Below, in pieces: positions 42,888-59,057 of a stretch of 64,000 nucleotides of DNA (within the stretch, counting starts at the first letter, position 1; each line of letters starts with the position of its first letter). Below the pieces are notes generated by a model that was given only the letters and a program-made list of their open reading frames with translations, was not told where the DNA came from and made no database searches. Location of the stretch: the IMG/VR virus record IMGVR_UViG_3300045996_004585, positions 1,334-65,333 of that record, one strand, 5' to 3'. A program made the position numbers and the translations under genes. Source of the stretch: a virus (lineage: Duplodnaviria > Heunggongvirae > Uroviricota > Caudoviricetes).

Positions 42888-45800
42888 CAAGCTAGCGGCA
42901 CGAGTGTACGATGCTCTCGTTGAGGATGTAAGAGCTAATCTAACACCGGAATTGCTCAAGCCAGAGTTCAGGGAGTCTCCGTTCCCTACTGGCCACTGTT
43001 ATGTCGCCGCAGAGGCTATTTATCACTTAGCTGGTGGGCCTGAGTCAGGTCTAAAGCCTATGCGCCTACGTATGCCTGACGGTGTAGTACATTGGTGGCT
43101 TCAAACGGCTGAGGGTGAAGTCATCGATCCCACACATGATCAGTACCACGAACCTGTACCATACGCCCAGGGCCGCTCAGGAGGCTTCCTGACGGCCTCT
43201 CCGTCCAAACGGGCTAGAGAGGTCATGAAGCGCGTCACAGGGGCTGTAAAGACCGCACAAGAGCTTGTGTTGATTGAGCCTAGAGAGTACAAGTTCCATG
43301 GTGGTGGCTATCCCTTCTTCTACATCCCCAGTGAGCAGAAGCTATATGTGATGCCCGCACATGCGTTTCACACTGACATGGCACTCAATGACCCCGAGTT
43401 ACGGGAATTAATCAAGAACTACATGGTCAATACCTATCGCACAACAACAGCGCCGTACATCCCAGGTCGCATCCATCTTGATCGCCCAGGTGCAACAGAT
43501 GGTGAAGTTGATGTGTATGGGGAAATTGTTGGTATCGATGCTAAGAACCACTGGCAGCCAATCCTTCAATCCATGGTTGATCAGTGGTGGGGCACAGAGA
43601 TTCCAGTGACTACAAGCGACTATCAAGGCGATGAGTTTGAAGCAGAGCCTGATGAGTTAGGCGAGTACCGCGATGTTCTCTCTGGTTATGAACAGCAGAT
43701 GGGGCGAGTAGCCAAGATTGTCAATCTTCCAGCGTTCGAGAAGACCCATGATGGTGACGAACCCACAAAAGACACGTGGAGGCGAACGTTCGTCTACCTC
43801 CCCACCACTGACACGCTCTACCTAGCGAATCACAACGCATATCACACAGATATCTGGCGCTGGATCGCTGAGCAGAACCCTGACATGGACTGGGAGCCAC
43901 TACACAATCGTGAGGTAGAGCCATCTCTGGGCTTGATCCAACGCAATTATGATGACAAGCAGCTTGAGGTTCATTACTACCACGCCGAGGGTGCGCCATT
44001 ACCCGATCACATGATGTTCGAATTAGAAGAGCATCTAGGTGAACACATGTCGCAGGTGCCGTGGCAGTATCCTCGCCCACTCGCTGACGACTGGTATGGC
44101 GATTGGGACGATGACGATTACGGTGCGACAGAACAGTGGCCCACAGACACCAAGAGCATCGCTCGACTTTCAACACAGTTTGATCACCCCATCGAGAATC
44201 CAGTCAACTATGACTTCGTGCCTCTGTCGCCTCTTGAGACAACAGCATGGGACACTTTGACACCAAGAGAGCGACACTGGTGGAGACGTAAGGCGCTTAA
44301 GTTGAACAACTACAGTGACAACCGAGGCAAGGTTAGACCACAAGATTTGCATGCACTTTATACCCGTTACCAGGGCTTTTGTGCATATTGTGGTGGGCCA
44401 GGAGCCACAAGTTGGGATCATGTCATCCCACTATCGCAGGGTGGCCAGAACGCTATTGAGAACCTGTTGCCTTGCCATCGCGAATGCAATGGACAGTTGA
44501 ATGACTGGGATCAACGTATGAATCCATTTGATCCAAACTCCCAGACTAAGCCTCCCGGCTACTGGGGCTTCCAACCTGCTGAGGCTGCTGTGGATTGGTC
44601 GCGCTCTGATCGCGTTCCTTACCAGTTTGGATTCGCGTTTATGTATCACGAGGGTGAACTATATGTAACTCACAATGGTCATCATCCAGACCTAATGCGT
44701 GAGTACTTGCGACAACAGGGGAGCCAAGAGCTAGAAGCAATCCAAGGAGTACGAGCCTTCAAGGAACAGGTTAAGGCTGGCAAGACAGTCTTTGGCTGGG
44801 TAAATCGCGACGACATCGAGTTTGTGAGTGGTAGTGCAGGCGACGACATGGCGTGGCATGCCGATCCTAAGCTCAAAGCTGAAGCGCATGGGGCTGTTAA
44901 GCAGTACATGCAGGAACATAAGACAGCAGGCACATTGTCTACCAAGTTCATTAACATAACCGATGACATTTGGCCCAATTATCCTCACAAAGATTCAAGT
45001 AGTTTCGCATGGATGTATCTCGATGGCACACTTTACGTATTGAACACAGGCCATCATCCCGACATCATGCGCTGGTATTTGAAGAATAAAGCTTTGGGGA
45101 GCCGCGATCTTGCACGAGCTTTCAAGGAGGCTATTGGAGAGGGTCGCGCTGTGTTCGGTTGGACAGTAAATGCAGACTCTGCTGTGTTAAGCGGCAACGC
45201 GCCTGACTCTATGGCCCGTCAGGCTCCACCCGAATTACAAGCAGAAGCACTCGCTGCTTGTGATGCATATATCGAATCTTTGCGAGCTACCTACAAACGA
45301 GCAGGCACACAGCCTGTCGAGTTAATGGTGTCAGATGACAGGCGCTGGCACTTCGATGACTATCTCAAGAGATACGACCGATTCGCATGGGTTTACTTCG
45401 ACGGCACCCTCTACTGTGGTGACTTGCACAGGGATATCATGGCCGAGATGAGACGAGAAGGTTTAGACTTCAGAAATGGAGCTTACTACGGCTGGTATGA
45501 TCCTTGGGGCAAGGAAGCGCCCAAGCAACCGAATGGTATTGACTACGTAACAGATTACGGCGAGCAGCATGAGGCACTGTTGCCTGAAGTCGAAGCGTTT
45601 TTTGAGCGTTATCCGCCTAAAGCTGTCCTTGACTACCTCAAGCATGGCACAAGACTAGGTGCTGCGCCCATGAAGGTGATGCGCGTGAAGACACCGCGCA
45701 CGAAGTTCCGTGGGGTCTATGGCATGCCCTTTAGTTATGTGCCCAGTCTCAACACCATCTTCCTTGCAGACTCGCACACCTATCACACGCGCATGTGGCC

Positions 45801-48800
45801 ACGACTGCCTGAAGAGTTTAGGCGCATAGTTTTAAGTGAACGGGCATCTATGGTCAATGGGCACATCGTTCCGGTCAAGGGAGATTACCTTGGTGGAGTT
45901 CAGTTCTATCTAGAACAAGATCAGATCGTAGACGAGGCGACAGCGGCAGCGATCCAGGATGCGCTCGTGCCCTACGTCGAACAGCTTGAGTTCGAAGAGG
46001 AAGAGTACGTCGAAGAGACTAAGCCCGGTGACCAGGATCAGCTATCGCTATTAGGGAAGACAAGTGCCGATTGGGGTTGGCTCATGAACGATATCGAGTA
46101 CAAAGCACAAGAGATTGCTGCTCGTCACAATTGGGAAATGACATTTGAATGGCGGGGGATGCCAATGTCAGATTGGGATGGCCGAAAGTATTACAATGGC
46201 GATATTGGTGGAAGGGTTGACTTTCAGGTTCCCTGGTTTTTAGCAGAGAGTGACGAGACGTGGTTGCCTGATCAGATTACCACTGTCATATTCACTGCGC
46301 CACCTATTGTTGACAAGCTCACTTACTACATTGCACTACATGAGCTAGGGCACATGGCATTCGTGAGTCAATATGGGCGAGATGTTAACAGTCAGGAAGA
46401 AGAGTTCTGGGCGATGCATTGGGCTATTGAGAACGGTGGTGGCGTAGTGGATCGCGCAACTATGGAATACGCCGCTGATTTCGTCAACTCATATTTCACT
46501 GGCGAGGCTGTAGAGCAAGGTATTAAGCGTCGAGCGCCGTCCCTTCCTTACAAGTATGTTGAAGACACACGTTTCCAGCAATTGCCGCTCAGCAAAGTTG
46601 CAGGCACAACGATGTATCGTGTTCTCCCAAAGAAGTTCCGTGATTTTGTGATGAAGCATGGATTAGTTAGATTGCCGGATCACAGTGGCAGCATGGATGA
46701 TGCGAGATTGTACGTTTTTCAAGACTTAGATTCTGCGCGATTGTTTGCAGAACATTATCGTCATTATCAAACCTCAGATATCTGGCGTATCAATGCGCCC
46801 ACTGATCTGCCGATAAAGTTTGACCCACGAGATTATCCACTTCTCGGCGTTGAGCATCCAGATGTAGATGAAGTTGGCTATTGGAAGCCCACACCATTCT
46901 ATCTCCATGTGGATATTCCGCCCGAATATGTAGAGCTTGTCGATACAGTGGTTGGTGCGCGTCAGTTTGATACAAGTCTATCTAAGACCGCCAACGAGGA
47001 CGACATCTGGGTAGATGGCCTGCCATTTCATGAAGCGCTCGATGGTCAAGTGGCGTTCTTACTCTACCCTGATTTGCTCGTAGCTGCCGAAAGCACGGGC
47101 CACAACGACATTAGACGATGGGTGCGAGAGAACAGGCCCGAGTTGTTGCGTGAGGAAATCCTACAGGGCTACAGCCGCGTTGTCCAGGGCAGGCCATCAG
47201 TAAGCTCATACGAGTATGGCTTGCACACTGAAGACTCGTTCCCTGGCCTAACCAAGCGCGTGTTCAACCTCGCGCTCTTCAACGAGGTTGAAGTTGCCGA
47301 CTTCGATGTAATCCGAGGTTTGAGTAAGGAGGCAGCATTGTCTCCTTCAGACTTTGAGAAGGGCGACTACTACACTGAGGTCATCCACAACATCTGGATT
47401 TACAACGGTGTCACCAAGAAGCTTTACTATGGCCACATAAAGCCAACAGTTGAGCGCAATCTTTCGTCATGGGAAGACAACCACCCTGAGCTTATGCGTC
47501 GGTACCGTGATGAGTTGGGTGGCGAGAATCGAGACAAGAATGTCTATGGTTGGTGGGTGAGGCGCATTGATGATGGATCACTTCGACCTATCATCCATAG
47601 TGACGCTTTCTCTAACACACGACGATGGGAGCCGCTAGTCGAAGAGGCATTTGAAGCAGCAAAGGCTGCGATTTCAGAACAAGAGCGACCCATCGTAGAG
47701 GATTACCGTTATTCATCCAGGTGGTCTGAGATGCCGCCGATTGGCTCACAGTGGGAGTGGCACAACGATCAGTTCGAGAATATGCTAACGGTCGTTCGCC
47801 TCGATCCACGCAACGAGGTTGTCATCATCCGTGGTCAAGCGGGACATGAGGTAGAGATTCATCTAGATGACTGGCACGAGTATGTGAGTGATGGCATGTT
47901 AAAGACGGCAGCAGCAACAGATTACATCTGGGTCTACGATCCTAACACAGGAGAACTACTCATACACGAGGAAGATTATGGATTGGTTAGACACGTGACA
48001 TTGATGGCTCAGCTTGGCGACAAAGAATATGCCAAGACGCTTTGGGGTGGTCACTGGCGCGACGGTGAAATAGATGTGCAGCATTGGCCCGCGAAAATAC
48101 TCGATTGGAATATGTCAATAGAGGAACGAGAGCAGGCAACTCAAGAAGCACTCAAGGAAAAGGAAGACGCATACGCTGCGGTAAGAGCCAAGCTTGGCTC
48201 AGTGCGTGTAGGTGCCGCTATTCCTTATGAGTGGGTGGAGTTATACGATTCAGCCAGCGAGCAATACATGAAGGGTTCTTTGCCATTCGTGTATATAGAT
48301 GGCAAAATCTATATTGCTAATGGGTCAGCTTATCACACGGCGATATGGAGAGCGCTGAAGCGAAACGATTTGGTGCGCCACATTAGCACTGATCAATACG
48401 TTCAGGGATGGGTGAGCATTAGTGGTGATATCCACTTCTATGAGGGCGATGAGGCATGGCCTGACCCTGATCCTGAAGTGCTGAAGCAGATTAAACAGGC
48501 AGTAAGAGAAGCACATGATGAGCGCGTCAATGAGCGAGCCGATATGGGAGACTGGTTAACAACGGCGGCATGGCCGAGTAATCCTGCTTGGGTCTATGAC
48601 CCTGAGGTTGATAAGCTTTACGTTGGCCAATGGCACCAGGACATCATTAGAAGGAACAAGCTGATGGGTAAGGCTAAATTAGAGCGTGACCCTGACGGCG
48701 ACTTTGATTTGGTTCGATTCACTACGTCGCTCGTGCTGGGCTGGCATCATGCTGGCGTCTTCTCTGATTATGGCGCGAGTACTGCAACAGAAGAGCAGAA

Positions 48801-51800
48801 GCAGCGAGCGCTTGAACTGGCAGAGGAATACTATGCGGATGTCGATGATGATCCACGATACACGCGCACAGCGGCTGTGCCTAATCCTGTGCCCAAGTAC
48901 AGGTGGGTCGTGATGACCGATGGCACTGTGTTTGTAGACGAGGACGACATCTACTTGAATCACCCGCAGTTGTTCCGCATGAAGGCTAAGCCATTGGGCT
49001 ATACGAAGGACGACATTGCGGATGCTGGATATCGCTCACAGTCTTATATGAGGATGCTTCCTTGGTATCAGGAGAATGCTGATACGTATGCGGTTGAGGA
49101 TGACGAGAGGGTAAAACGACACACAGGCAATCTGGTAGTGCGCGATGATCCGCGCACTGATATCTTCATCTTCACTTATTCGCCGCAGTCAGACACGATG
49201 ATCATCGGCAATCGGAGATGGAATCACACTAGGTACTGGCAGAGTGATGATCAGGGGCTAATTGCAGGTGGCGTTAACCTAACGAGCGGGCTATGGTTCT
49301 ACGATGAGAGTATGGTCACGGCAGAGATAGAGGCGCGAGTAGAAGAACTAATAGACGAGTGGCGATCTTCTAACATAGGAGTAGGAGATAACACCACAAC
49401 ACCCACGGTATCAAGCCATCAGTCTACTGGAACAACCGCAGAGAATAGCGGTCAGTCTCGCCCTATACTCAGCACAACTGTCCTACAGGATTCTGCCCTG
49501 GTACCTAGTACTGCGCAGCTAGCACAGTTAGATGGCCAGGTCAAGGGCAATCACGATAAGCTGTGGGGTGTGATGACTGCACCGCATCCATCAGCATGGA
49601 TGCCCGCCACATATCCCGCCATCACCGCCACTCATACCGCCATGGATACAACACACGACCTTCTAACATCAGAGTGGTCACCTACACCTAGACCCGTACA
49701 CCTAGACCCCCACCAAGGTGGCACCATAGGGTACCCCCAGGGGTATACCGGAAAGGTGCTTTTCCCGACTGACACTACTTCAGCCTTTTCGGGTACTAGA
49801 CTGGCAGACTGGGACGAGGATTCCCCTAACATCGACGTAGCCTACACTGAAGCGCATGGATGGCGGGTATATCTGCTGGATACCAGCCTAATCCCCGGCC
49901 CTCCACCCTGGGAGAATCTGCGTAGGCCAGCGCATTGGAGCAAGGAACAGAAGCTGATCTTCATTGGTTCAGAGGGCACTCACCACAATCCATTGTTGAG
50001 GGGTCTGATCCTCACTGGGCTTGTTCAAAGCCCGGAGGATATCAATGATCTGAAGTGGGAAATCATCCTCCCTACAGGTGAGATACGCATGTCTCTACGC
50101 TTCGAAGAGGGGGCGCAGGAGGCAGTGAATGAAGCGCTGGGCACTGATTACGACCCATTGAAGAAGAACATTCCTGTCGGTTTGGAAGAGGGTCTGCGCG
50201 TGGACACATCTCGGACAGGTGCCGAGGAAAGTATGTCCGAGAATGAGATGTCATATGGAGGATGGACACTGCGAAGATTGCCTGACACTACAGTGTACGG
50301 CATGGGTACTAGATGGTCATGGGTAGCCAACCCTGACACCAGGGAGATTGTCTATGGATCAGGTTGGACTCACCGACCACTTTTCAAAGAATTGGGCTTG
50401 AGAGGCGATCATGCAGTCAACTTGAAAGAACGATCAAAACCTGCTGCTGGTATTGTCTGGGATGATGGGACTAGTTGGTTGTATGGTAATGCATTTATTG
50501 GCAACACAGTTGAAACAATCATGAAAGACGTATACCTGAAATCAAGTGCAAATGAGCCTCCTAGGCTCCCTAGACACACGGGCGCTATTCAGCTTCGTGA
50601 GGGCTGGGTATGGGGCGAGTGGCATCACCCTGAAGATGTCTATACGCCGCAGCCGTTCATCTACCAGAACCACACTCTTTGGTTAGGGGGCGACGATGCT
50701 CCTACACATCCTTTCGTTGTACGGAAGTATGGCCTAGATCGGGAGAAGCCCATGCTGCCGGGTTGGGTCTATCATGAGTCGAAGCAGATCGCTTTCCAGT
50801 CGTGGGAAGAGAATGTAGACCGGAGCCTCATCGAGGAAGCCATGCCGCTGATCTTGGCCTCTCTTCCTGAGGGGTATCAGAGAGTGCCGCAACGTACCAC
50901 GGCAGCTTCTGAATGGACTATCCATCTCGTGGACAATGCGCCTTACGAAGATGTAGGAAGCGATTGGTTATGGGCACCCACGCGATTCCCTGTTCTTTTC
51001 CAGAAGGAGCGAAAGATCATGTTCGTCGGCACGCAGCCTGGGTCGCATCACGTGCCTCTTATGAGGGCAATGAAAGAAAGTGTGCCATTCCAGGCATACA
51101 CTACACCAACGATTCGACCCACCCTATCGTGGGATTTCTTGGACAACGGCAAGCCGGGACGTGGCGACCATGCTATCGGCAGTACGCCCGGTGGAAGACA
51201 GGCCGTCCAAAAGGCATGGGCGATGCTACACCCAAAGAAGCCTGAACCAGCGGATCAGCTATCGCTCTTTGAAGCGAAGACGAGTGATTTCTATCCCCGC
51301 GAGAGAGCGTTCGCCTTCATTGATGGCAGACTGATTTTCGGCACTTCTCATAGCTCGATTCTGCGAAGAGCGAGGGAGGAAGGATTGTTGCTGAGCGATG
51401 ACCCGCAAATTGATCTGGGCTGGATGCAGCAATTAGATGACGACCACTGGGAGCCTGAGTCTATCTCATATGACAACAACGCCTTCGTTCGCTCTAGTTC
51501 CGAGTACCGAGCGCAAATGCTGGCTGAGGCACGCCGATTGTGGCCTGAGCATATGAGGAACTTGAAGGTTTCAAAGGACTCTCTTGTACTTGTAGATCAG
51601 CATCTCTGGGATGATGTCGCTCCGCACGTCAAGACCTTCAAACTTCATGATAGCGAAACGCAAACCGATGTCGGCAAGATCACGTATGGAATCATAGAGG
51701 ATGAGAAGAGAATCCATGTTGGCACGATGCATGTCGATGGGTTGTACCGCAAGACGGATGCTTTCATGCGACTAATTGAGCCTCTTGTACCGTACCTCTC

Positions 51801-53349
51801 CCAGGGCTATACCTTAGATGCTACGTATGTGAACCCGCGCTTGAAGAATGTGGTAGAGCGCTGGTTCGGTCGGCATGCAACATTGGGAGACATCGGCTCA
51901 GACTTCTTCTGTTGGGTCTACTGTGGTCAGTGTAAGCAGCTATGGATCGACGGTTACTCCTACCACGGTGACCTATACCGGAACAATCCTGAGATTAGAC
52001 GGGTGCATGCAAAAGAAGGCCATTCTCTTATCTGGGGTCAAGTCGCACTCTATGACAACCCTCCTATCCGCATGTACTCAGATTGGTATGAAGGCTGGGC
52101 TGATCAGCAAGAGAAGCCAGGAACCGACGATGGCTATGACTATGAAAGAGATGATGAGCTATTCGCAAACGCACAGCAGTTTGGTTACTTCAAGGAAGCT
52201 GAGCCTCTTGTTGAGGCTTGGCTGGATAAGGAGCGCGAAGGATGGAGAAAGGATGCGGCTGTCACCGACTGGGAAGTTGTCGATGTCACCACCATAATGG
52301 AAGGCAATGATAATCGCATCTTCAAGCCTGACCGTATTGCATTTGTAGCTGATACGGAATCTAAGCTCATTGCGATTGGTCGTGGCCTATACCACAAGCC
52401 CTTGATCAGGATGCTGGTAGACAACATGATAGGTAACACAGAAGTCGAGCATGGAGCAGAGCTTAACCGCAACGAAGGCTTGCGTGACAGATTCGTGGCT
52501 GGATACTACTTCCAGGCCGACAAGCATTTCGATCCTGAGTCAGGCTATCACTTAGAAGGAAGAGAGGTTCAGACGGCTGTTGCACTGTACGTGGATCAAC
52601 ATCCGGTGTTAAGCAAGACGGCAGCTATCAAGATTGTAGAGGTCGATACAACAGGCGTGCAGTACGATGATTGGATTGGCGAAGACATCGCAAAGGTGCG
52701 TCGCCCAATGCTCTATCAGCCATGGGACGACACCGTGTACATCGGGCCGACAAAGGGTCTTCATGGGCAGATAGCTAGGAAGCTGGGATGGGATAAGACG
52801 TGGTGGGATGATTCATTGCGAGGCATGATCGTCCGAGATGAAATTTTGTGGTTTGGTAGCGTACCCCAAGAGGCTCAAGATGCCGTGCAAGCTTGGCATG
52901 ATGACAGAAGCCATCTGCGAACAGCAGGAACACAGGACGCTGATTTGGCTTTCGATCCGTTCAGTAATAGGCCCAATGCCAAGGGTCTGCGTGGAGAAGA
53001 CTACGGACTTGACCCCCGTGGAACCTTCGTTTACGTGGACGGTGTGCTATTCTGGGGCGACCGTATTCACCCGCGCATGTTGAAGCAGATTATGGAGGAA
53101 CACTTCGATATCCCCGATCCCAAGATTGCTGACTTCAAGAACTTCATCGCTACGCACGAGACAGCTTTCGGGCGTGTACGTTGGGAAGGTGAGTTCCTTT
53201 GGTACATGGGAGGTACGCCCGAGTTTGCTGAAGAGACAGCGGTGAGTTTCGTTAGTTGGGATTTTGGAGATACCGCGCCTGAAACTAAAGAGAAGGTGTT
53301 GGCTGAAATCCGCAAGTATGCTCCTGACCTAGAAATGGAAGAAGAGTAA
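42835..53349 (+). CDS. giant polyvalent protein (3504 aa) with ~20 repeated modules, HNH nuclease motif and HExxH zincin motif
   Basis: Uninterrupted 10.5-kb ORF (alternative starts at 42856 and 42871). HNH motif CAYCGGPGATSWDHVIPLSQGGQNAIENLLPCHRECN at nt ~44380-44492. HExxH motif ALHELGHMAF at nt ~46339. About 20 copies of the module [FW]-x-[FWY]-h-Y-x-D-G-x-L-Y-h-x(5-7)-H-x-x-h-h-R. Low-complexity linker at ~49380-49800. Confidence 0.8.
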   Translation: MDGLRRSMKQRHMKRQISKLAARVYDALVEDVRANLTPELLKPEFRESPFPTGHCYVAAEAIYHLAGGPESGLKPMRLRMPDGVVHWWLQTAEGEVIDPTHDQYHEPVPYAQGRSGGFLTASPSKRAREVMKRVTGAVKTAQELVLIEPREYKFHGGGYPFFYIPSEQKLYVMPAHAFHTDMALNDPELRELIKNYMVNTYRTTTAPYIPGRIHLDRPGATDGEVDVYGEIVGIDAKNHWQPILQSMVDQWWGTEIPVTTSDYQGDEFEAEPDELGEYRDVLSGYEQQMGRVAKIVNLPAFEKTHDGDEPTKDTWRRTFVYLPTTDTLYLANHNAYHTDIWRWIAEQNPDMDWEPLHNREVEPSLGLIQRNYDDKQLEVHYYHAEGAPLPDHMMFELEEHLGEHMSQVPWQYPRPLADDWYGDWDDDDYGATEQWPTDTKSIARLSTQFDHPIENPVNYDFVPLSPLETTAWDTLTPRERHWWRRKALKLNNYSDNRGKVRPQDLHALYTRYQGFCAYCGGPGATSWDHVIPLSQGGQNAIENLLPCHRECNGQLNDWDQRMNPFDPNSQTKPPGYWGFQPAEAAVDWSRSDRVPYQFGFAFMYHEGELYVTHNGHHPDLMREYLRQQGSQELEAIQGVRAFKEQVKAGKTVFGWVNRDDIEFVSGSAGDDMAWHADPKLKAEAHGAVKQYMQEHKTAGTLSTKFINITDDIWPNYPHKDSSSFAWMYLDGTLYVLNTGHHPDIMRWYLKNKALGSRDLARAFKEAIGEGRAVFGWTVNADSAVLSGNAPDSMARQAPPELQAEALAACDAYIESLRATYKRAGTQPVELMVSDDRRWHFDDYLKRYDRFAWVYFDGTLYCGDLHRDIMAEMRREGLDFRNGAYYGWYDPWGKEAPKQPNGIDYVTDYGEQHEALLPEVEAFFERYPPKAVLDYLKHGTRLGAAPMKVMRVKTPRTKFRGVYGMPFSYVPSLNTIFLADSHTYHTRMWPRLPEEFRRIVLSERASMVNGHIVPVKGDYLGGVQFYLEQDQIVDEATAAAIQDALVPYVEQLEFEEEEYVEETKPGDQDQLSLLGKTSADWGWLMNDIEYKAQEIAARHNWEMTFEWRGMPMSDWDGRKYYNGDIGGRVDFQVPWFLAESDETWLPDQITTVIFTAPPIVDKLTYYIALHELGHMAFVSQYGRDVNSQEEEFWAMHWAIENGGGVVDRATMEYAADFVNSYFTGEAVEQGIKRRAPSLPYKYVEDTRFQQLPLSKVAGTTMYRVLPKKFRDFVMKHGLVRLPDHSGSMDDARLYVFQDLDSARLFAEHYRHYQTSDIWRINAPTDLPIKFDPRDYPLLGVEHPDVDEVGYWKPTPFYLHVDIPPEYVELVDTVVGARQFDTSLSKTANEDDIWVDGLPFHEALDGQVAFLLYPDLLVAAESTGHNDIRRWVRENRPELLREEILQGYSRVVQGRPSVSSYEYGLHTEDSFPGLTKRVFNLALFNEVEVADFDVIRGLSKEAALSPSDFEKGDYYTEVIHNIWIYNGVTKKLYYGHIKPTVERNLSSWEDNHPELMRRYRDELGGENRDKNVYGWWVRRIDDGSLRPIIHSDAFSNTRRWEPLVEEAFEAAKAAISEQERPIVEDYRYSSRWSEMPPIGSQWEWHNDQFENMLTVVRLDPRNEVVIIRGQAGHEVEIHLDDWHEYVSDGMLKTAAATDYIWVYDPNTGELLIHEEDYGLVRHVTLMAQLGDKEYAKTLWGGHWRDGEIDVQHWPAKILDWNMSIEEREQATQEALKEKEDAYAAVRAKLGSVRVGAAIPYEWVELYDSASEQYMKGSLPFVYIDGKIYIANGSAYHTAIWRALKRNDLVRHISTDQYVQGWVSISGDIHFYEGDEAWPDPDPEVLKQIKQAVREAHDERVNERADMGDWLTTAAWPSNPAWVYDPEVDKLYVGQWHQDIIRRNKLMGKAKLERDPDGDFDLVRFTTSLVLGWHHAGVFSDYGASTATEEQKQRALELAEEYYADVDDDPRYTRTAAVPNPVPKYRWVVMTDGTVFVDEDDIYLNHPQLFRMKAKPLGYTKDDIADAGYRSQSYMRMLPWYQENADTYAVEDDERVKRHTGNLVVRDDPRTDIFIFTYSPQSDTMIIGNRRWNHTRYWQSDDQGLIAGGVNLTSGLWFYDESMVTAEIEARVEELIDEWRSSNIGVGDNTTTPTVSSHQSTGTTAENSGQSRPILSTTVLQDSALVPSTAQLAQLDGQVKGNHDKLWGVMTAPHPSAWMPATYPAITATHTAMDTTHDLLTSEWSPTPRPVHLDPHQGGTIGYPQGYTGKVLFPTDTTSAFSGTRLADWDEDSPNIDVAYTEAHGWRVYLLDTSLIPGPPPWENLRRPAHWSKEQKLIFIGSEGTHHNPLLRGLILTGLVQSPEDINDLKWEIILPTGEIRMSLRFEEGAQEAVNEALGTDYDPLKKNIPVGLEEGLRVDTSRTGAEESMSENEMSYGGWTLRRLPDTTVYGMGTRWSWVANPDTREIVYGSGWTHRPLFKELGLRGDHAVNLKERSKPAAGIVWDDGTSWLYGNAFIGNTVETIMKDVYLKSSANEPPRLPRHTGAIQLREGWVWGEWHHPEDVYTPQPFIYQNHTLWLGGDDAPTHPFVVRKYGLDREKPMLPGWVYHESKQIAFQSWEENVDRSLIEEAMPLILASLPEGYQRVPQRTTAASEWTIHLVDNAPYEDVGSDWLWAPTRFPVLFQKERKIMFVGTQPGSHHVPLMRAMKESVPFQAYTTPTIRPTLSWDFLDNGKPGRGDHAIGSTPGGRQAVQKAWAMLHPKKPEPADQLSLFEAKTSDFYPRERAFAFIDGRLIFGTSHSSILRRAREEGLLLSDDPQIDLGWMQQLDDDHWEPESISYDNNAFVRSSSEYRAQMLAEARRLWPEHMRNLKVSKDSLVLVDQHLWDDVAPHVKTFKLHDSETQTDVGKITYGIIEDEKRIHVGTMHVDGLYRKTDAFMRLIEPLVPYLSQGYTLDATYVNPRLKNVVERWFGRHATLGDIGSDFFCWVYCGQCKQLWIDGYSYHGDLYRNNPEIRRVHAKEGHSLIWGQVALYDNPPIRMYSDWYEGWADQQEKPGTDDGYDYERDDELFANAQQFGYFKEAEPLVEAWLDKEREGWRKDAAVTDWEVVDVTTIMEGNDNRIFKPDRIAFVADTESKLIAIGRGLYHKPLIRMLVDNMIGNTEVEHGAELNRNEGLRDRFVAGYYFQADKHFDPESGYHLEGREVQTAVALYVDQHPVLSKTAAIKIVEVDTTGVQYDDWIGEDIAKVRRPMLYQPWDDTVYIGPTKGLHGQIARKLGWDKTWWDDSLRGMIVRDEILWFGSVPQEAQDAVQAWHDDRSHLRTAGTQDADLAFDPFSNRPNAKGLRGEDYGLDPRGTFVYVDGVLFWGDRIHPRMLKQIMEEHFDIPDPKIADFKNFIATHETAFGRVRWEGEFLWYMGGTPEFAEETAVSFVSWDFGDTAPETKEKVLAEIRKYAPDLEMEEE

Positions 53350-55623
53350 ATGGCACCACGAGTTCTATATCACTACAGTGACCCAGCTAACCGCGAGTCC
53401 ATTCAGTTAGGAGGGCTTTCGCCTGACTTCGATTTCACAGGTCTTGGCGCGGTCTATCTCTCCACTGAGCCTCTTGACACTTCAGATGAGGCTGACGTGT
53501 GGCGCGTTTATACTCAGGGACTTGACGTTGTTGACGATGTTTCAACGCCAGGTTTCGAAGGCGAGTGGTTCATGTACTACGGTGTCATTCCGCCCGAGCG
53601 CCTAGAGTTGATGGGCGAGTGGGAAAAGGCAGCCAAGTGGAAGAAGATGGCCGAGACTTACATGGGGTGGCCCAAGTTCGACCGTGGTGACAAGGTGATC
53701 GTTTTGGGCTATGGAGAGAAGGGCACTGTCGATTCTGCTCACTGGGTAGAGGATCGAGACGAATGGTGGTATCGCGTCTGGACTATTGTCGATGGTATTC
53801 ATGAGCTTACTCCTGTTCCAGAAAGCGACCTTGAGCGCCTTAGCGCGGGACTCGATGATAATGCTGACCTAGATCAGCCGTCTGCCTGGACGCTCAAAGA
53901 CTTCGGAATCCCACCTGAAGCAGAAGAATACTTCCGTTCAGCGGGATTACGTGACCAAATTGAGTGGATACGCGCTCAAGTGGGGATAGATGGTGAAGAG
54001 TTTGAGCCAACCAGGGCAGCGACACCCTGGGCTAAGGGTAAGTCAAATGGAATGTGGTACTGCCGTAAGTGTGGCGAAGGGCCATGGGATAAGTTGTGGT
54101 ACGCGCAACAACACACACAATCTCGACATCCAATAGCGAAATATGTTACAATGGATAGGATGAGTGCTAACCAAGCACAGCTTGACGCTATCCGCGAAAC
54201 CTATGAGGCGGATATCAACGCCCGTGCCGCAACGGACGCGCTGACGGCTGCCGGTGGACGGGTCTTCATCGTTGGTGGGGCCGTTCGTGACGCTTTCCTT
54301 GGAAGACCGTCCAAGGACGTAGATTTGATGTGTCAAGGCTTGACTGGCGACGAGATTATGGCGGCGCTGTCTCCCTTGGGCATCGTCAAGCTGACGGGCG
54401 AAGCGTTCGGCGTCTACCGCTTCAGGCTCCCTAACACAGACGCAAGTCAAGAGGTTGAGATTGCCCTTCCTCGTACCGAGCGCTCCACAGGCGCTGGCCA
54501 CAAGGACTTTGAGGTTCAGACTGATCCTTACCTCGACCCTGTGGTCGATCTACAGCGCCGTGACTTCACTGGAAACGCGATGGCCTATGATCCTGTCGGC
54601 AATGAGCTTCTCGACCCGCACGGGGGCGCTGATGACCTTACAGCGGGTCGCCTGAGGTTGGTCAATGACAGCGCGCTTGCAGATGACCCTCTGAGAATCG
54701 TGCGCGCACTTGTGGCAAACGCTCGCTTCGGACTTCAGCCTGATGAAGACCTACTTGACGCGCTGTCTGCGAACGCACACAGACTAAAGTCTCTCCCTGG
54801 CGAGCGCATCCAGATGGAGATGGATAAGCTGCTCGCTGGCGACAACCCTGCGGGGGCTATGGAGATTGCTGCTGCCTCAGGGTTGATTGACTACATGGTG
54901 CCCGAGCTTGCCGCTGCGGTTGGCTTCGATCAGATGAACCCGCACCATGACCTGAGTGTCTACGATCATACGATGGAAGTCTTAAGGGCGGCAGCACGCC
55001 TAACAACCGATCCTGACATTCGCCTAGCTGCACTCTTCCACGATGCTGGTAAGCCCGAATCCTTCTGGCGAGATGAGACTGCACCCGAGGGTGGCGGCGG
55101 GCACTTCTACAAGAAGGTGTTGGAGGACGGCACTGAGATTGGGGAGAACCATGAAGAGGTTTCTGCTCGCTTGGTCGAGGCGTTCATGAAGCGCCTGCGC
55201 TACCCTAACGACCGCATGAAGCGTGTCACGACGCTGTGCGCCAACCATATGTTCCCGTACTTCAAGACCGAGAAGGGGGCACGTAAGTTCTTGGCCGCAC
55301 TCGACGGTGACTTCAAGCTGGCTGAGGATTTGCTGACTCTTCGTGAGGCCGATGCTTCAGGTAAGAGGGATGGTTCAATCAATGAGCGTGACCGCAAGGC
55401 AATCGACCGCGCAAGAGAATTGCTCGCAGCAGCGAAGGAAAACAACACTGCCGTCACGGTGAAGGACTTGGCTGTGAATGGCCACGACTTGATGCAGTTT
55501 GGACTGAAAGGGCCGCAGATTGGGCAAGCTCAGAAGAAGCTGCTTGAAGTTATCATCGACAATCCAGAACTCAATGAACGAGAATCATTGCTTAGACTGT
55601 TGAGGGACGGCCTGGTGGGTTAA
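53350..55623 (+). CDS. CCA-adding-enzyme-like nucleotidyltransferase + HD domain protein with Tpt1/KptA-like ART-fold N-terminal domain
   Basis: Pol-beta head motif VFIVGGAVRDAFLGRPSKDVDLM; HD motifs HHDLSVYDHTMEV and LFHDAGKP; N-terminal VLYHYSDPANRESIQLGGLSP ... VYLSTEP ... VIPPERLEL. Confidence 0.7.
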   Translation: MAPRVLYHYSDPANRESIQLGGLSPDFDFTGLGAVYLSTEPLDTSDEADVWRVYTQGLDVVDDVSTPGFEGEWFMYYGVIPPERLELMGEWEKAAKWKKMAETYMGWPKFDRGDKVIVLGYGEKGTVDSAHWVEDRDEWWYRVWTIVDGIHELTPVPESDLERLSAGLDDNADLDQPSAWTLKDFGIPPEAEEYFRSAGLRDQIEWIRAQVGIDGEEFEPTRAATPWAKGKSNGMWYCRKCGEGPWDKLWYAQQHTQSRHPIAKYVTMDRMSANQAQLDAIRETYEADINARAATDALTAAGGRVFIVGGAVRDAFLGRPSKDVDLMCQGLTGDEIMAALSPLGIVKLTGEAFGVYRFRLPNTDASQEVEIALPRTERSTGAGHKDFEVQTDPYLDPVVDLQRRDFTGNAMAYDPVGNELLDPHGGADDLTAGRLRLVNDSALADDPLRIVRALVANARFGLQPDEDLLDALSANAHRLKSLPGERIQMEMDKLLAGDNPAGAMEIAAASGLIDYMVPELAAAVGFDQMNPHHDLSVYDHTMEVLRAAARLTTDPDIRLAALFHDAGKPESFWRDETAPEGGGGHFYKKVLEDGTEIGENHEEVSARLVEAFMKRLRYPNDRMKRVTTLCANHMFPYFKTEKGARKFLAALDGDFKLAEDLLTLREADASGKRDGSINERDRKAIDRARELLAAAKENNTAVTVKDLAVNGHDLMQFGLKGPQIGQAQKKLLEVIIDNPELNERESLLRLLRDGLVG

Positions 55624-55624
55624 C

Positions 55625-55909
55625 GTGATGTTTGATCCTTCACTACTCAGCGAGAAATTGAGAGATGGAACAGTCTCGTATGAGGGCGGCTTTAATCTGG
55701 GCTTGAAGGGTCACGTTCGTCAGTTGCTTGTCATCACTGGGCAAATCAAACATGAGTACGATGATGGCATGGGTGCCGCGACCGGCAAGATTGGCAAAGC
55801 ATGGGTCATGGGCAACTTAGATGGACTAGCTACTGGTGGCCACGAAGACATGTTGACCGAAGATCAGATGAGACTTGCGCACGAGTGGCTAGACTCAGAA
55901 CCTGACTAG
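55625..55909 (+). CDS. hypothetical protein
   Basis: Sits between two large genes; GTGATG junction. Confidence 0.35.
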   Translation: MMFDPSLLSEKLRDGTVSYEGGFNLGLKGHVRQLLVITGQIKHEYDDGMGAATGKIGKAWVMGNLDGLATGGHEDMLTEDQMRLAHEWLDSEPD

Positions 55910-58065
55910 TGCGTACACCAATAAGTGCTATGCAGAAAACAGCACGCACAACGCTTTACCACGTTACTCCACAAGCCAACAGAGAGAGCATCTTGGCTGA
56001 AGGATTAAATCCTGCCTATGCCCCTGGTCGTGATTACGTGTGGCTATGGGATGATCCACAGGAGATGTCTGAAATACTTGTTAATAGTCTGACGTGGGGC
56101 GGGGATCGAACACCCGATGTTTGGCTGGTTGATGGTTCCGGTATCCAATTGCAACGTGATCCCCATCCAAGTGGCTGGGCGCATGCATTTGCTACGCGCG
56201 ATGCGATCCCGCCCGATAGACTCCAACTGATGCCTCCTGAAAGGTTCTCTCTAGCCCGAACCAGTAATATTTTCGACCCAATCGAGAAGTCGCTCGACCA
56301 ACAGGTGTTCCGGGGCATCGAGCCACGGCAGCACCACATTGACTGGATTCTTAGACTGTACGCACGAGCGCTGATGCAGCGATTCGGCGTCCAGGGAGAC
56401 GGCTGGACTGACCTGTACTTCACTGGCTCGCTGACGACCTATCAGTACAGCGAGACAAGCGATGCTGACATCTCTGTCTTCGCCAACTGGGATCGTTTCA
56501 CTGAAGAGCTAGGCATGGATGTTCAGACGACTCGTAAGGAGTTGATCGCCATGAGCATCGACCATCTCGATGGAACCTTCCTCCCAGGCACCACGCACCC
56601 GCTACAGTTCTTTGTAGTACCCCAGGGAGTACTTCCATCCGACCTGTACCAGCCGGGGCTTAGAAGCGCTTACAGCCTCGATGACCGTATGTGGTATCAG
56701 GAACCTGAGCCGGATCGTGTTCACGAGATTGCTGTCGAGCTACCGGAATTCATGGCTCGTGCCGCTGATATGGCTGAAAAGATGACTGAAATGCTCGACC
56801 ACGATCCTGAGTCTGCCCGCCAACTCTGGCACGACATTCACAAGAAGCGTCAGCTTGATCAGCAGGCAGGGCTTGGTGACTTTAGTGAAGGGAACATCGT
56901 CTATAAGTACCTGCTTCACGAGGGGCTGTTCGACCGCATCCGTGAAGAACTAGGCGAGTACATCGCCAAGACGGCCATTTCACGTGGACAGGCTTGGGTC
57001 TATGATCCTAAAACTGACACGCTAGCTTCTGGCCATCCTTTTCATGCGCACGTTTTGCATGATATGGGTTATCATTCTGGCAAAGACCCGGCACTTCATG
57101 GATTTATCTATGGTGTCGTCAACGATGCTGGACTATATTCTGTGTTGATCAAAACTGATTTTCCTACGGTGGATTACCGTGACTACATTCCTCAGATTGA
57201 GGTCAAGCTGACAGAACTGATGGGCATGCCCGTTAAGAATCGGTGGGTACTAGAGGATAGCGACCGGCTGAGTCAGAGGAAAGTTGCAGCACTCCTTGAT
57301 GAAGAGACAATCGCTGATCTAACTGCTCACATCTACGAGCTAGCGGAGAAATATAGAATTGAGATTCGATGGGGAGAAGATAGGCATAATGCTTGGGCTG
57401 CGCCTGATCTTGTCATGACTCCGCAAATTCGCTATGACATCGATTACCTTGTGGCTCTTCATGAGGTAGGCCACGTTGTCTTGCAGATGGAAGGGCAGCA
57501 CCCTGACTGGGAGTTTTACGACGAATGGTCAGAGGTTGAGGAAGAGGCTCAAGTCTGGCGGTGGGCACTCGATAACACGATCATTCCTATTAGCCCGGAG
57601 ATGCTACGTCAAGCGAAGTGGGATTTGGGCACGTACTATGAGCATGCTACCCAGACATTTGGCAAGCCGCGCGAACCAGAGGAAGTTGGAGAGAATTACA
57701 GATGGCTTCTCAATTTCCAGAGCGCCAACCTTTGGGATAGAGTTACGACCAAGGTCATCTACGACTTTGACAAAGACCAGATTGTGCTTGGAACACAGGC
57801 AACCCTAGCTGACTTGCCACATTCTAAGATCATCGGGGAGTACGCCGACGAGGCAGTTACTCTCTTTGAAGCAGAGAAGCAGTGGATCAACCCCGGTTAC
57901 TTCCACCGCTTATGGCAGCACACCTTCCCGAATCGACCGCTCAAGGATGTCTACTACCGGCGCGGCGACAACTCGGAATACAAACTCAAGACAAGGGTAA
58001 AGCAATGGACGCGAGGCGACTTAGAAGACGGGCCGTATCCATGGGAAGACGGCGATACAGATTAG
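55909..58065 (+). CDS. multidomain protein: Tpt1/KptA-like ART-fold N-domain, minimal nucleotidyltransferase motif, one copy of the giant-protein module, HExxH zincin motif
   Basis: N-terminal TLYHVTPQANRESILAEGLNP ... AIPPDRLQLM (paralogous to the 53350 N-terminus); NTase motif FTGSLTTYQYSETSDADISVF; module WVYDPKTDTLASGHPFHAHVLHDMGY; zincin motif ALHEVGHVVL. Confidence 0.6.
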   Translation: MRTPISAMQKTARTTLYHVTPQANRESILAEGLNPAYAPGRDYVWLWDDPQEMSEILVNSLTWGGDRTPDVWLVDGSGIQLQRDPHPSGWAHAFATRDAIPPDRLQLMPPERFSLARTSNIFDPIEKSLDQQVFRGIEPRQHHIDWILRLYARALMQRFGVQGDGWTDLYFTGSLTTYQYSETSDADISVFANWDRFTEELGMDVQTTRKELIAMSIDHLDGTFLPGTTHPLQFFVVPQGVLPSDLYQPGLRSAYSLDDRMWYQEPEPDRVHEIAVELPEFMARAADMAEKMTEMLDHDPESARQLWHDIHKKRQLDQQAGLGDFSEGNIVYKYLLHEGLFDRIREELGEYIAKTAISRGQAWVYDPKTDTLASGHPFHAHVLHDMGYHSGKDPALHGFIYGVVNDAGLYSVLIKTDFPTVDYRDYIPQIEVKLTELMGMPVKNRWVLEDSDRLSQRKVAALLDEETIADLTAHIYELAEKYRIEIRWGEDRHNAWAAPDLVMTPQIRYDIDYLVALHEVGHVVLQMEGQHPDWEFYDEWSEVEEEAQVWRWALDNTIIPISPEMLRQAKWDLGTYYEHATQTFGKPREPEEVGENYRWLLNFQSANLWDRVTTKVIYDFDKDQIVLGTQATLADLPHSKIIGEYADEAVTLFEAEKQWINPGYFHRLWQHTFPNRPLKDVYYRRGDNSEYKLKTRVKQWTRGDLEDGPYPWEDGDTD

Positions 58066-58242: not shown

Positions 58243-58503
58243 TCAAGCAATAATCTGATAGAACGGGCCGCTCATGATCTTCTCTGCGGCCTTGCGAATC
58301 TCAGGATCGTCGGACTTGAGCGCGACATCGAGTGCCGCGAACATATCCATTGCGGCCTCCGCGCCAAGGCTTGATGCCTTGAGTGCCTTGTCCTGAACCG
58401 CATTGAGGCGAGTTACAAGCCCTCGATTGCGTCCGCCTGGGCGAGCCACCTTGATGAGCCTCTCGGCCATCTCATGCGTGTACATTGAATCATGCGTCGG
58501 CAT
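58243..58503 (-). CDS. hypothetical protein
   Basis: First gene of a short minus-strand cluster; stop overlaps the next minus gene. Confidence 0.4.
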   Translation of the reverse strand: MPTHDSMYTHEMAERLIKVARPGGRNRGLVTRLNAVQDKALKASSLGAEAAMDMFAALDVALKSDDPEIRKAAEKIMSGPFYQIIA

Positions 58504-58909: not shown

Positions 58910-59057
58910 ATGGAAGCTTGGTCACCATGAGAGTTGCCCACTCCCAATGACCTGTCTTGTAATACTCGCCAAAAGCACGGTCGAGCGCTCGTTGTTCAGC
59001 AGACGACTGTTTCCAGCCGCCATCATTAACTTCGCTGCTGATATAGACGAAGGTCAA
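58836..59057 (-). CDS. hypothetical protein
   Basis: Minus-strand ORF. A further 39-aa ORF (59057..59176) read by eye overlaps by ATGA. Confidence 0.35.
   Translation of the reverse strand: MTFVYISSEVNDGGWKQSSAEQRALDRAFGEYYKTGHWEWATLMVTKLPCDDRDAHYPNLCWHYQIEIEPADG

Follow-up and report, generated by a model that had tools for sequence, protein, structure and literature searches.

The gene cluster described here lies on the plus strand of a 64,000-nucleotide stretch of viral DNA (Caudoviricetes), hereafter the window, and all features are on that strand unless stated otherwise. It opens with a giant ORF, G (42835–53349; 3,504 aa), in which an array of ~22 copies of a small module is interspersed with other domains. 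Gene A (53350–55623; 757 aa) follows with a gap of 0 nt and fuses a domain that we call X to a CCA-adding tRNA nucleotidyltransferase. One nucleotide further on lies a 94-aa ORF without a family match (55625–55909), and then gene B (55909–58065), which comprises X, a nucleotidyltransferase (NTase)-like core, a module, a zincin-like domain, and a C-terminal domain. The 718 residues of B are counted from GTG 55909, a start that overlaps the 94-aa ORF by 1 nt, whereas the JGI call is ATG 55930. Gene C (59229–62435; 1,068 aa) consists of a module, an NTase-like core, a variable middle, and a SWIM-containing C-terminal domain. The original prediction had described four contiguous, co-oriented genes, 0–2 nt apart, as one operon. 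That spacing holds for G and A, but the 94-aa ORF intervenes between A and B, and 1,163 nt separate B from C. This gap is occupied by four small minus-strand ORFs (58243–59194; 86, 139, 73, and 46 aa); because these opposite-strand ORFs split B from C, the genes do not form one uninterrupted operon. GC skew is negative at 58–60 kb, where the minus-strand ORFs lie.

The three proteins downstream of G had been taken for NTases, and the assignment stands. The CCA-adding region of A (54262–55596, aa 305–749) matches the Pfam families PolyA_pol (E=3e-19), PolyA_pol_RNAbd (E=1e-13), HD (E=5e-10), and tRNA_NucTran2_2 (E=3e-6), as well as phrog_2244 (E=6e-72). The core of B (56251–56982, aa 115–358; TGSLTTYQYSETSDAD) ends in GEYIAKTA, is 45–75% identical to its homologs among the matches listed, and is modeled at pLDDT >90 with a fold resembling MNT and ANT-type NTases. 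The core of C (59484–60413, aa 86–395; YGSGISYNWDEAGDMD) aligns with it in hhalign at 97.7% (P=2.2e-12, 232 columns), and both carry a GS...DxD motif. Judged from their sequences, the two cores are paralogous nucleotidyltransferases of the Pol-beta type. In both B and C the core and the C-terminal domain are conserved, and the cassettes between them vary among homologs; these cassettes include 2H/LigT/Acb1-like, NUDIX, cyclase-type, GNAT, methyltransferase, HNH, and M78 domains. The C-terminal domain of B (57742–58023, aa 612–705; KVIYDFDKDQIVLGT...) is found in 74 of the 120 listed homologs and is weakly module-like (P=1.2e-4). That of C (61626–62432, aa 800–1068), with a weak SWIM-like zinc finger at aa 864–897 (E=0.021, below the Pfam cutoff), is kept in ~64–70 of 81 homologs.

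A module of ~30 aa had been proposed to be shared by G, B, and C. The sharing is confirmed, but the size is not: the 30-aa segment is the core of an 85–125-aa alpha/beta domain with one invariant His. The domain is previously undescribed, and a comparison with the PDB gave no significant match. G contains 19–22 copies. Six precede the zincin-like domain: copies 1 (43300–43719, aa 156–295, iE 1e-8), 2 (43774–44184, aa 314–450, iE 5e-15), 3 (44623–44919, aa 597–695, iE 3e-12), 4 (44995–45300, aa 721–822, a unit modeled with AlphaFold2), 5 (45373–45639, aa 847–935, iE 2e-12), and 6 (45715–46056, aa 961–1074, iE 9e-8). The series continues with copies 7 (47044–47325, aa 1404–1497, iE 4e-11 with the core profile), 8 (47380–47694, aa 1516–1620, iE 6e-4), 9 (47920–48219, aa 1696–1795, iE 2e-6), 10 (48274–48558, aa 1814–1908, iE 1e-16), 11 (48574–48864, aa 1914–2010, iE 1e-10), and 12 (48892–49134, aa 2020–2100), the weakest, which has no HMM match and was placed by eye in the alignment. 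Copies 13 (49153–49389, aa 2107–2185, iE 3e-5), 14 (49927–50244, aa 2365–2470, iE 7e-4), 15 (50305–50538, aa 2491–2568, iE 2e-7), 16 (50641–50895, aa 2603–2687, iE 4e-8), 17 (50980–51276, aa 2716–2814, weak at iE 0.04), and 18 (51295–51609, aa 2821–2925, iE 2e-4) come next, and the array closes with copies 19 (51898–52248, aa 3022–3138, iE 5e-6), 20 (52327–52614, aa 3165–3260, iE 8e-5), 21 (52693–52917, aa 3287–3361, iE 4e-12), and 22 (53011–53346, aa 3393–3504, iE 3e-5).

Single copies had also been predicted in B and at the extreme N-terminus of C, and both are borne out. The copy in B (56986–57240, aa 360–444) is marginal against profiles made from G only (E 0.04–0.6). It scores E=6.2e-7 against a broad profile built from 684 copies in 93 other proteins, from which the B and C families had been left out, and the next ORF outside G scores 0.23; in P0004, a collinear homolog of B, the equivalent place is occupied by a canonical copy. 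For the copy in C (59229–59483, aa 1–85), HMMER with the module profiles found nothing. An alignment of 60 sequences, C and the copies in its homologs, matches the module profile in hhalign at 93.6% probability (P=2.1e-7, 77 of 88 columns; reversed control P=0.13), and the start at ATG 59229 is backed by homologs whose alignment with C begins at residue 1.

G and B each contain a zincin-like domain, in G at 46225–46494 (aa ~1131–1220; HELGH at aa 1169, EEE at aa 1188–1190) and in B at 57274–57711 (aa 456–601; HEVGH at aa 518, EEE at aa 544–546). The segments with HExxH and a downstream Glu, claimed earlier to be paralogous, span 46318–46425 and 57445–57567. Pairwise BLAST between them is marginal (E=0.037). 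A profile built from B aa 455–600 and nine homologs, with G left out, nevertheless matches G aa ~1131–1220 at E=8e-16, against E=1.4 for the next best of the 556 six-frame ORFs in the window. In an alignment of 16 sequences, Y, L, H, E, H, and two residues of the EEE are invariant.

A third shared domain, X, was overlooked in the original prediction and links G (46591–46953, aa ~1253–1373, E=5.8e-16), A (53350–53631, aa 1–94, E=1.9e-15), and B (55936–56253, aa 10–115); in this region, A and B match in BLASTP at E=6.6e-7. It is Tpt1/KptA-like, resembling the ADP-ribosyltransferase lobe, but without the RNA-binding N-lobe that is present in Tpt1, a lack that speaks against action on RNA ends. 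The genes do have mobile domains in common, as had been proposed, and X adds to those recognized at first. That these similarities are chance matches of HExxH and a few hydrophobic residues between unrelated neighbors is vanishingly improbable. Pairwise BLAST is indeed weak (E 0.003–0.04), and profiles made from G only are not significant on B or C. However, searches with independent profiles reach E=8e-16, 6e-7, 6e-16, and 2e-15, hhalign reaches P=2e-7, the controls are clean, and synteny is conserved. The chance reading is refuted on these grounds, and the shared modules represent true homology; alignment by profile, as the original prediction had asked, is better than chance.

A group of uncultivated phages shares the cluster arrangement, and homologs of the four genes co-occur elsewhere, a point raised with the original prediction. 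Two other contigs, read directly, show the order giant, CCA enzyme, B, C, and in 18 of 24 IMG/VR loci a CCA enzyme is found no more than 10 kb from a B-type core. The lists of B and C homologs have 29 contig sizes in common, and 6 are in common with the giant homologs. The domains move between proteins: in related phages the CCA enzyme bears the module at its N-terminus, a PEP-utilizer protein carries it too, the zincin occurs inside a C homolog, and two loci (L022 and L023) join CCA enzyme and NTase core in one ORF.

The remaining domains of G are an N-terminal domain (42925–43242, aa 31–136; phrog_12251, E=2.6e-26), where the homologous giant P0210 has a YunG-like Pfam match, and an HNH nuclease domain (44380–44502, aa 516–556; Pfam HNH E=6e-8, with PHROG HNH families). 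The 12 giant homologs besides G range from 2,159 to 4,712 aa. Giants have 10–22 modules and enzymes one, and this distribution could be explained if the module were a protein–protein docking domain and the giant a multivalent scaffold for one large enzyme assembly. Single modules on B, C, the PEP-utilizer protein, and the CCA enzyme of related phages would then tether these enzymes to the giant without cleavage, much as the earlier idea of an interaction module implied, and linkers would be mere flexible spacers inherited with the cassettes. The position of the module, terminal or beside a core, and its lack of a conserved catalytic-looking residue set apart from the one His agree with docking, and co-conservation of the B core and C-terminal domain favors an intact chain. 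On the other hand, its conserved residues (the invariant His, a Gly, and an aromatic strand) could equally bind a ligand. We regard the scaffold as possible but rather unlikely, and the linkers themselves count against it.

Many of those linkers, which are disordered, carry a [KR]-[TV]-A-[AG] motif just ahead of the next domain. Persistence of a specific K-T-A sequence across domain types and distant phages is not what one would expect of a purely structural spacer. In G the sites are KTAQ (43249–43260, aa 139), KTAG (44920–44931, aa 696, disordered in the model), KTSA directly ahead of the zincin (46057–46068, aa 1075), KVAG directly ahead of X (46594–46605, aa 1254), KTAN (46984–46995, aa 1384), KEAA (47326–47337, aa 1498), KTAA (47902–47913, aa 1690), TTAA (48559–48570, aa 1909), RTAA (48865–48876, aa 2011), KSSA (50539–50550, aa 2569), TTAA (50896–50907, aa 2688), KTSD (51277–51288, aa 2815), KDAA (52249–52260, aa 3139), KTAA (52615–52626, aa 3261), and RTAG (52918–52929, aa 3362). 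B has KTAR ahead of X (55936–55947, aa 10), KTAI where the NTase core ends (56968–56979, aa 354), both at pLDDT <50, and KVAA ahead of the zincin (57280–57291, aa 458). C has RVAA at the module/core boundary, where homologs carry insertions (59484–59495, aa 86), KTAG at the end of the core (60405–60416, aa 393), and KTAD where the C-terminal domain begins (61638–61649, aa 804). Modeled motif positions in B and in the module-4 unit of G fall in linkers with pLDDT <50. KTA occurs 9 times in G, B, and C (0.8 expected) and twice in the remaining window (3.2 expected), and 129 times in 199 homologs (28.7 expected). Where X, the module, or the B C-terminal domain starts internally, K[TV][AS] stands ahead of it at a fixed distance in 27–33% of cases, and the reversed motif in ~5–6%. 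Codons differ between copies of the motif; therefore the constraint acts on the protein. The motif is degenerate, and many junctions are without it, which speaks against cleavage. Because the motif also overlaps with [AS]-N-I-x-D-P, the N-terminus of the NTase core itself, a number of "KTA-N" cases may belong to the domain and not to the linker.

Location of the motif in disordered linkers makes processing plausible. The original prediction assigned proteolysis of the products to the zincin domains, but these were present in only ~9 of the 120 B homologs listed, in 3 of 13 giants, and in none of the 24 IMG/VR loci; a domain this rare cannot serve the whole system as its general processing enzyme. 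Cutting B at every linker would also separate its co-conserved core and C-terminal domain, which counts against processing.

Cleavage by a prohead maturation protease would be expected if G, B, and C were packed in the capsid, targeted there by the module or by N-terminal segments, and injected along with the phage DNA, as is the case for N4 vRNAP and the P1 Dar proteins. HK97-type prohead proteases cleave after Lys and ahead of a small residue, which fits the motif. Related loci show the motif in further large proteins, encoded between C and a capsid-decoration gene, and structural genes adjoin the cluster in one locus (L001). G is similar in size to packaged N4 vRNAP, ~3,500 aa (PMC13434306), and packaging and processing have been proposed for polyvalent proteins (PMC5512222). 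The neighbors of the cluster in the window, however, are nucleotide-metabolism genes and not head genes, and there is no obvious need to package a CCA-adding enzyme. We consider packaging the least probable of the functional readings, and distinctly improbable.

We favor, at roughly even confidence, a lineage-specific cluster of phage genes. Its large proteins draw on a common pool of domain cassettes, are most likely of the polyvalent type with RNA ends as their targets, and would be processed at their linkers. Polyvalent proteins with zincin peptidase domains offer a conceptual precedent (PMC5512222); against the reading, none of the Pfam polyvalent-protein families matched at E<=0.1. The theme of RNA ends recurs in the CCA enzyme, its placement beside B-type cores, Tpt1-like X, the 2H/LigT/Acb1-like and NUDIX inserts, and NAD-salvage and ligase genes upstream in the window. 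The proteins would function as effector arrays of the polyvalent or MARTX type, with the linkers as processing sites whose cleavage, by the zincin where present and elsewhere by another protease, would free individual domains. The module may confer on all of them one binding specificity, directed either at a common ligand, RNA for example, or at one another. RNA ends would be the substrates of the enzymes, with tRNA 3′ ends and 2′/5′ phosphates the likeliest targets and NAD the probable co-substrate for X.

Three cassettes (a repeated module, a zincin-like domain, and an ADP-ribosyltransferase lobe) are homologous across the giant protein G and the products of the downstream genes A, B, and C. 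B and C are themselves paralogous, the synteny of the group is kept in other contigs, and the cassettes move freely among gene families. The peptide segments on which the original prediction drew were all found where it had placed them.

All of these genes lie on the plus strand. The G open reading frame (42835-53349, 3,504 aa) is followed by A (53350-55623, 757 aa), by a small ORF of 94 aa at 55625-55909 that had escaped mention, and by B (55909-58065, 718 aa counted from a GTG codon); the junctions among these four are abutting or overlapping, at 0-1 nt. C, an ORF of 1,068 aa at 59229-62435, begins only after a further 1,163 nt. The idea of four contiguous genes separated by 0-2 nt is therefore only partly right: G, A, and B abut, with the 94-aa ORF between A and B, but the gap before C holds four small overlapping ORFs on the minus strand (58243-59194), where the GC skew is negative. 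These minus-strand ORFs encode 86, 139, 73, and 46 aa, and the segment YVNPSYQNEGVFREMF of the 139-aa product resembles an acetyltransferase motif. Elsewhere in the window, right-handed beta-helix proteins are encoded at 13119-14066 and 20938-23430 and are probably tail fibres or depolymerases. They flank ORFs of 1,197 and 797 aa; family scans gave no match whatsoever for the former, and the latter has a PHROG match annotated as phosphodiesterase and none in Pfam.

The JGI start calls are later than those of the longest ORFs. G is called 79 codons downstream (P0202, 3,425 aa), B from Met8 (P0001, 711 aa), 7 codons after the GTG at 55909, and C from Met23 (P0121, 1,046 aa), a start that would remove part of its N-terminal module. 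About 46 homologs span the first residues of C, and since many of them align from residue 1, the ATG at 59229 is validated.

The module is a domain of 85-125 aa with an invariant histidine. An iterated profile detects 19 copies of its 30-aa core in G, and two or three more are recognized by eye, for a total of about 22; the per-copy E-values come from a profile that includes the copies of G itself. When a 22-unit profile was compared with 1.84 billion representative proteins, only 96 were matched at E<=0.001, mostly giants with up to 22 copies. Single copies had been proposed in B and at the N-terminus of C. Profiles made from G only, whether of the 30-aa core or of a unit of about 85 aa, find B marginally (E 0.04-0.6) and do not find C. 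A richer profile of 684 copies from 93 proteins, from which the B and C families were excluded, matches B at aa 360-444, spanning positions 3-80 of 87, with E=6.2e-7; the next ORF other than G stands at 0.23. A collinear homolog of B, P0004, has a canonical copy at the matching position. The N-terminal family of C has the consensus YKFVWADG-x-L...HH-x-D-I-L...GG-x-F, which looks canonical for the module, and hhalign aligns it with the rich profile over 77 columns at 93.6% probability (P=2.1e-7; controls 0.13 for the reversed profile and 0.07 for an unrelated domain). Jackhmmer from the C N-terminus gave no bridge to canonical modules, and the HMM of its family reaches only E=0.05 on G, so that it is profile-profile comparison that joins C to them. 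By the richer-profile match and the hhalign result with its clean controls, both single copies are real. The AlphaFold2 model of B gives the module region a pLDDT of about 30, a low value attributable to the few aligned sequences that cover it. The C-terminal domain of B (57742-58023, aa 612-705; KVIYDFDKDQIVLGT...) aligns weakly with the module's first half (47 columns, P=1.2e-4; 0.18 for the reversed control) and may be a distant derivative of it.

Several segments of G lie outside the modules. A Ser/Thr/Pro/Gln-rich, module-free stretch at aa ~2185-2340 (window ~49390-49855) divides two module arrays. The segment between modules 18 and 19, at aa ~2926-3021 (window ~51610-51897), has no Pfam match; it may be a divergent GNAT domain, as giant homologs carry GNAT. 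A segment preceding the HNH domain (aa ~476-515, window 44260-44380; FDHPIENPVNYDFVPLSPLE) recurs in the B homologs P0064, P0067, and P0071, directly after a KTA or IA junction, so the HNH cassette is shared as well.

The zincin-like segment of G was proposed to be paralogous to one in B, and this relationship is now well founded. In a pairwise BLAST comparison of G and B the segment scores only E=0.037, but it is among the three best alignments, the other two being likewise proposed homologies. Among 120 matches listed of the 179 database relatives of B, at least nine contain the segment in a form closer to G than that of B itself, e.g. SYWVALHELGHAAFRRQYG...SLEEELWAHHWALEH. A profile of B and these nine relatives, with G left out, was run against 556 six-frame ORFs of the window and finds G at aa ~1131-1220 with E=8e-16, the next match being at E=1.4. 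An alignment of 16 sequences shows no variation at Y, L, H, E, H and at two positions of the EEE that follows; the invariant E-x-E lies 19-26 residues past HExxH, at the position of the third zinc ligand. The AlphaFold2 model of B places HExxH in a helix at 510-527 and EEE in one at 540-555, consecutive helices that follow two strands, as in the zincin layout. With HExxH on one helix and the glutamate on the next, as deduced from alignment and model, the segments of G and B have the motifs of gluzincins and may be regarded as putative peptidases. Known peptidases are distant: the Pfam scan found no peptidase family match for the segments, the profile finds nothing significant among PDB sequences (only ACE-family matches, E 0.3-1), and Foldseek offers a weak match to ArdC (E=0.6), whose C-terminal domain is a polyvalent-protein peptidase.

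The third cassette, X, is a lobe like that of Tpt1/KptA. The N-termini of A and B align with E=6.6e-7, and a profile of B aa 9-114 with 62 copies from 48 other proteins detects it in G at aa ~1253-1373 (E=5.8e-16) and in A at aa 1-94 (E=1.9e-15). X corresponds to the C-terminal, NAD-binding ART lobe of Tpt1/KptA, with which it has in common a YH-x-[TS]...I...GL...P motif visible in the sequences themselves; the alignments cover about 100 of about 180 target residues. Unlike Tpt1/KptA, it is only about 100 aa long, occurs as a fused cassette with up to five copies per protein, and does not have the N-terminal RNA-binding lobe; hence it is Tpt1-like rather than a Tpt1. Chance similarity is excluded as an account of the shared cassettes.

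The description of A, B, and C as three nucleotidyltransferase (NTase) proteins is acceptable. Its family matches identify A as a class II CCA-adding enzyme: PolyA_pol (E=3e-19), PolyA_pol_RNAbd (1e-13), and HD (5e-10), all above the curated Pfam cutoffs, along with tRNA_NucTran2_2 and phrog_2244 (E=6e-72). A shares this domain content with the phage enzymes of phrog_2244 but differs from them in its N-terminal X and about 200 additional residues. Homologs of A have a module in place of X, or are fused to an NTase core of the B type.

B is a mosaic of X (aa 10-115), a core (aa 115-358), the module, the zincin-like domain, and the C-terminal domain at aa 612-705. The core, modeled with pLDDT >90, is 45-75% identical in the listed homologs and ends in a near-invariant GEYIAKTA; the C-terminal domain is present in 74 of the 120 homologs among the matches listed. 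Between the two, homologs carry 2H/LigT/Acb1-like, NUDIX, cyclase-type, GNAT, methyltransferase, HNH, or M78 domains. C begins with the module, after which come the core (aa 86-395), a middle that varies, and a C-terminal domain that is conserved and gives a weak SWIM-like match; homologs have insertions precisely at the module/core junction. By hhalign the two cores are paralogs (97.7%, P=2.2e-12 over 232 columns; reversed control 0.29). Both contain the G[GS]-x9-13-D-x-[DE] motif of Pol-beta NTases, as GS-x10-D-x-D (B TGSLTTYQYSETSDAD; C YGSGISYNWDEAGDMD), and its G, S, and both D residues are invariant in the B family. Matches of the B core to AAD(9) by Foldseek (E=0.023, probability 0.57) and of its profile to DrrA (E=0.2) are weak but consistent with the NTase fold, which C may share through its hhalign link to B; the profile of the NTase core finds nothing significant among PDB sequences.

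B and C resemble Pol-beta NTases (minimal NTases of the MNT type, the aminoglycoside and lincosamide NTases AAD(9), AadA, and LinB, and the AMPylase DrrA) in this motif and in a probable strand-helix core followed by a helical domain. By sequence they are not significantly related to any NTase of solved structure, and they possess features of their own: invariant NI-x-DP, GLRS, and G-x-GD-[FY]-[SC]-x-[GS]-N motifs and a dedicated beta-rich C-terminal domain. A further difference is that their homologs host inteins, in P0011, P0014, and P0077 of the B family and P0138 of the C family. The intein of the B core is inserted after the conserved GLGDF|C site, and P0138 has Pfam matches to Hom_end_hint, LAGLIDADG_3, and Intein_splicing. 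Inteins are usually located at conserved sites of essential enzymes.

Co-occurrence of homologs elsewhere, on which the proposal of one system depended, is borne out. Contig size, used as a proxy for shared contigs, gives 29 sizes common to the homolog lists of B and C, and matches six of twelve other giant homologs (2,159-4,712 aa, mostly with 8-17 modules at a strict threshold) to homologs of B or C. Two contigs were read directly, NCBI JAXOUH010012724.1 (loci L001 and L002) and ENA k141_1878714 (locus L003). Both have the order giant, CCA enzyme directly downstream, small genes, B homolog, small genes, C homolog, and a protein with a PEP-utilizer domain (746-854 aa; L003 16443-18695, L001 13829-16393), which in L003 bears a module (iE 6e-5); the matching position lies beyond the window end. 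In both the CCA enzyme has an N-terminal module in place of X, and one of the two C homologs contains the zincin-like domain. At L001 4139-5911, between the CCA enzyme and the B homolog, are genes for an FtsH-like protease (AAA and Peptidase_M41) and a Band_7 protein; no counterpart of these was seen in the window. The B core served to find 24 IMG/VR loci, of which 18 encode a CCA enzyme no more than 10 kb away, 16 have a module, and 8 have X. Two of these loci (L022 7514-10711 and L023 7520-10720) combine CCA enzyme, module, and B-type NTase core in a single ORF of about 1,066 aa. A nucleotide search of the INPHARED phages gave no match, and a protein search with B gave one weak match, in a 636-kb uncultured phage.

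In G, B, and C, [KR]-[TV]-A-[AG] or a close variant of it (LSKTAA, LGKTSA, RKRVAA) stands ahead of nearly all domain starts. Counts of the tripeptide KTA are 9 in G, B, and C together (0.8 by shuffling) and 2 in the other ORFs of the window (10.6 thousand residues; 3.2 expected); A has none. Among 199 homologs the count is 129, with 28.7 expected, and the permutations TKA, ATK, and KAT are near expectation. Because the codons of the motif differ at synonymous sites, the constraint is on the protein level, and a DNA-level signal such as a recombination site was rejected on the same grounds. Of the internal starts of the module, X, and the C-terminal domain of B in 295 related proteins, 27-33% have K[TV][AS] in the 40 residues before them, as against about 5-6% for the reversed motif. 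Each domain type has its own fixed distance from the motif: 0-5 aa in X, 20-30 aa in the module, and 5-15 aa in the C-terminal domain of B. The excess is small for 25 internal starts of the B core (6 against 4), and some cases belong to the domain, since the N-terminus of the NTase core ([AS]-N-I-x-D-P) overlaps the motif. In models the motif falls in segments with pLDDT <50.

These linkers may be true site-specific cleavage sites, a tentative reading by which phage genes of 2-4.7 thousand codons would encode cassette polyproteins cut into 20-30 small proteins. The zincin-like domain may cut the linkers where it is present. As a universal protease for the motif it was rejected, since most homologs and all 24 IMG/VR loci lack it, and the suggestion that it processes the products of the system does not stand for a general enzyme. 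Cleavage might come instead from the prohead protease, with the linkers cut in virion cargo; this is improbable. The many copies of the module in G and the single copies in B and C could also be those of a scaffold and its tags, with no cleavage of the linkers and their conserved motif, a model that we consider doubtful.

Cleavage into units is known or proposed in two comparable kinds of protein. MARTX proteins are secreted bacterial toxins of 3,500-5,300 aa with glycine-rich repeats and arrays of effector domains; an internal cysteine protease, activated by inositol hexakisphosphate, cuts short inter-domain linkers and frees the effectors. G is likewise a giant repeat-containing protein with domain arrays, but it belongs to a phage, its repeats are globular domains, its protease would be the putative zincin, and cleavage is predicted by analogy. 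The features that point to such cutting here are two, the conserved disordered linker motif and the zincin-like domain. The polyvalent proteins of phages and conjugative elements (Iyer, Burroughs, Anand, de Souza, and Aravind 2017; PMC5512222) are extensively shuffled and include a zincin-like HExxH...E peptidase domain proposed to cut the units apart. The present proteins resemble them in being huge phage proteins that mix domains acting on nucleic acids, NAD, and proteins (ART, 2H, GNAT, HNH, NTase), in this peptidase-like domain, and in their shuffling. Many diverse domains are joined in one chain, G having an N-terminal domain, HNH, zincin, X, and 22 modules, and B five domains. Polyvalent Pfam families (MPTase-PolyVal, LPDs) have no match in G, A, B, or C at E<=0.1. 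What dominates here, unlike in polyvalent proteins, is one novel domain repeated in tandem about 22 times, and the hub is a paralogous NTase pair with a CCA enzyme, the zincin being rare. The NTase among polyvalent domains is a minimal version from firmicute conjugative elements (PMC5512222). The word 'linker' does not occur in that paper, which thus appears not to describe a conserved linker motif, and searches of the literature for giant phage polyproteins turned up no description of such a system.

By analogy with the polyvalent proteins (PMC5512222) or the MARTX toxins, the proteins would be arrays whose units are freed by cutting at the linkers. Their target may be RNA ends, probably of tRNA, a guess from context suggested by the accompanying CCA enzyme, the lobes like that of Tpt1, the inserts of 2H and NUDIX type, and genes upstream of G. 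These encode an ATP-dependent DNA ligase (29443-30642), a PnuC-type NMN transporter (33984-34808), a NadR-like NMN adenylyltransferase (37457-38467), and a metallophosphoesterase (38514-39305). The NAD salvage genes may be connected with the three adjacent X domains, which resemble NAD enzymes. In the tentative polyprotein reading, the His-module would represent a new fold family and provide the CCA enzyme, two new NTases, and the released units of the giant with one shared target, e.g. tRNA, in a previously unrecognized system of RNA repair or RNA protection.

No tested library names the families of this cluster: a tandemly amplified domain of about 100 aa, two paralogous NTase families (45-75% identity, with inteins in homologs), and a conserved linker motif. 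They are tied genetically to a CCA-adding enzyme and to cassettes directed at NAD or RNA ends, among them the Acb1/2H-like and NUDIX inserts of homologs. Should the linkers not be cleaved, the giant would be a multivalent scaffold of a rare kind, and its client enzymes would bear the matching tags. If they are cleavage sites, tailed phages would have a polyprotein strategy on the scale of RNA viruses and MARTX toxins, and the variable inserts would supply a ready list of candidate effectors for counter-defence or RNA repair.
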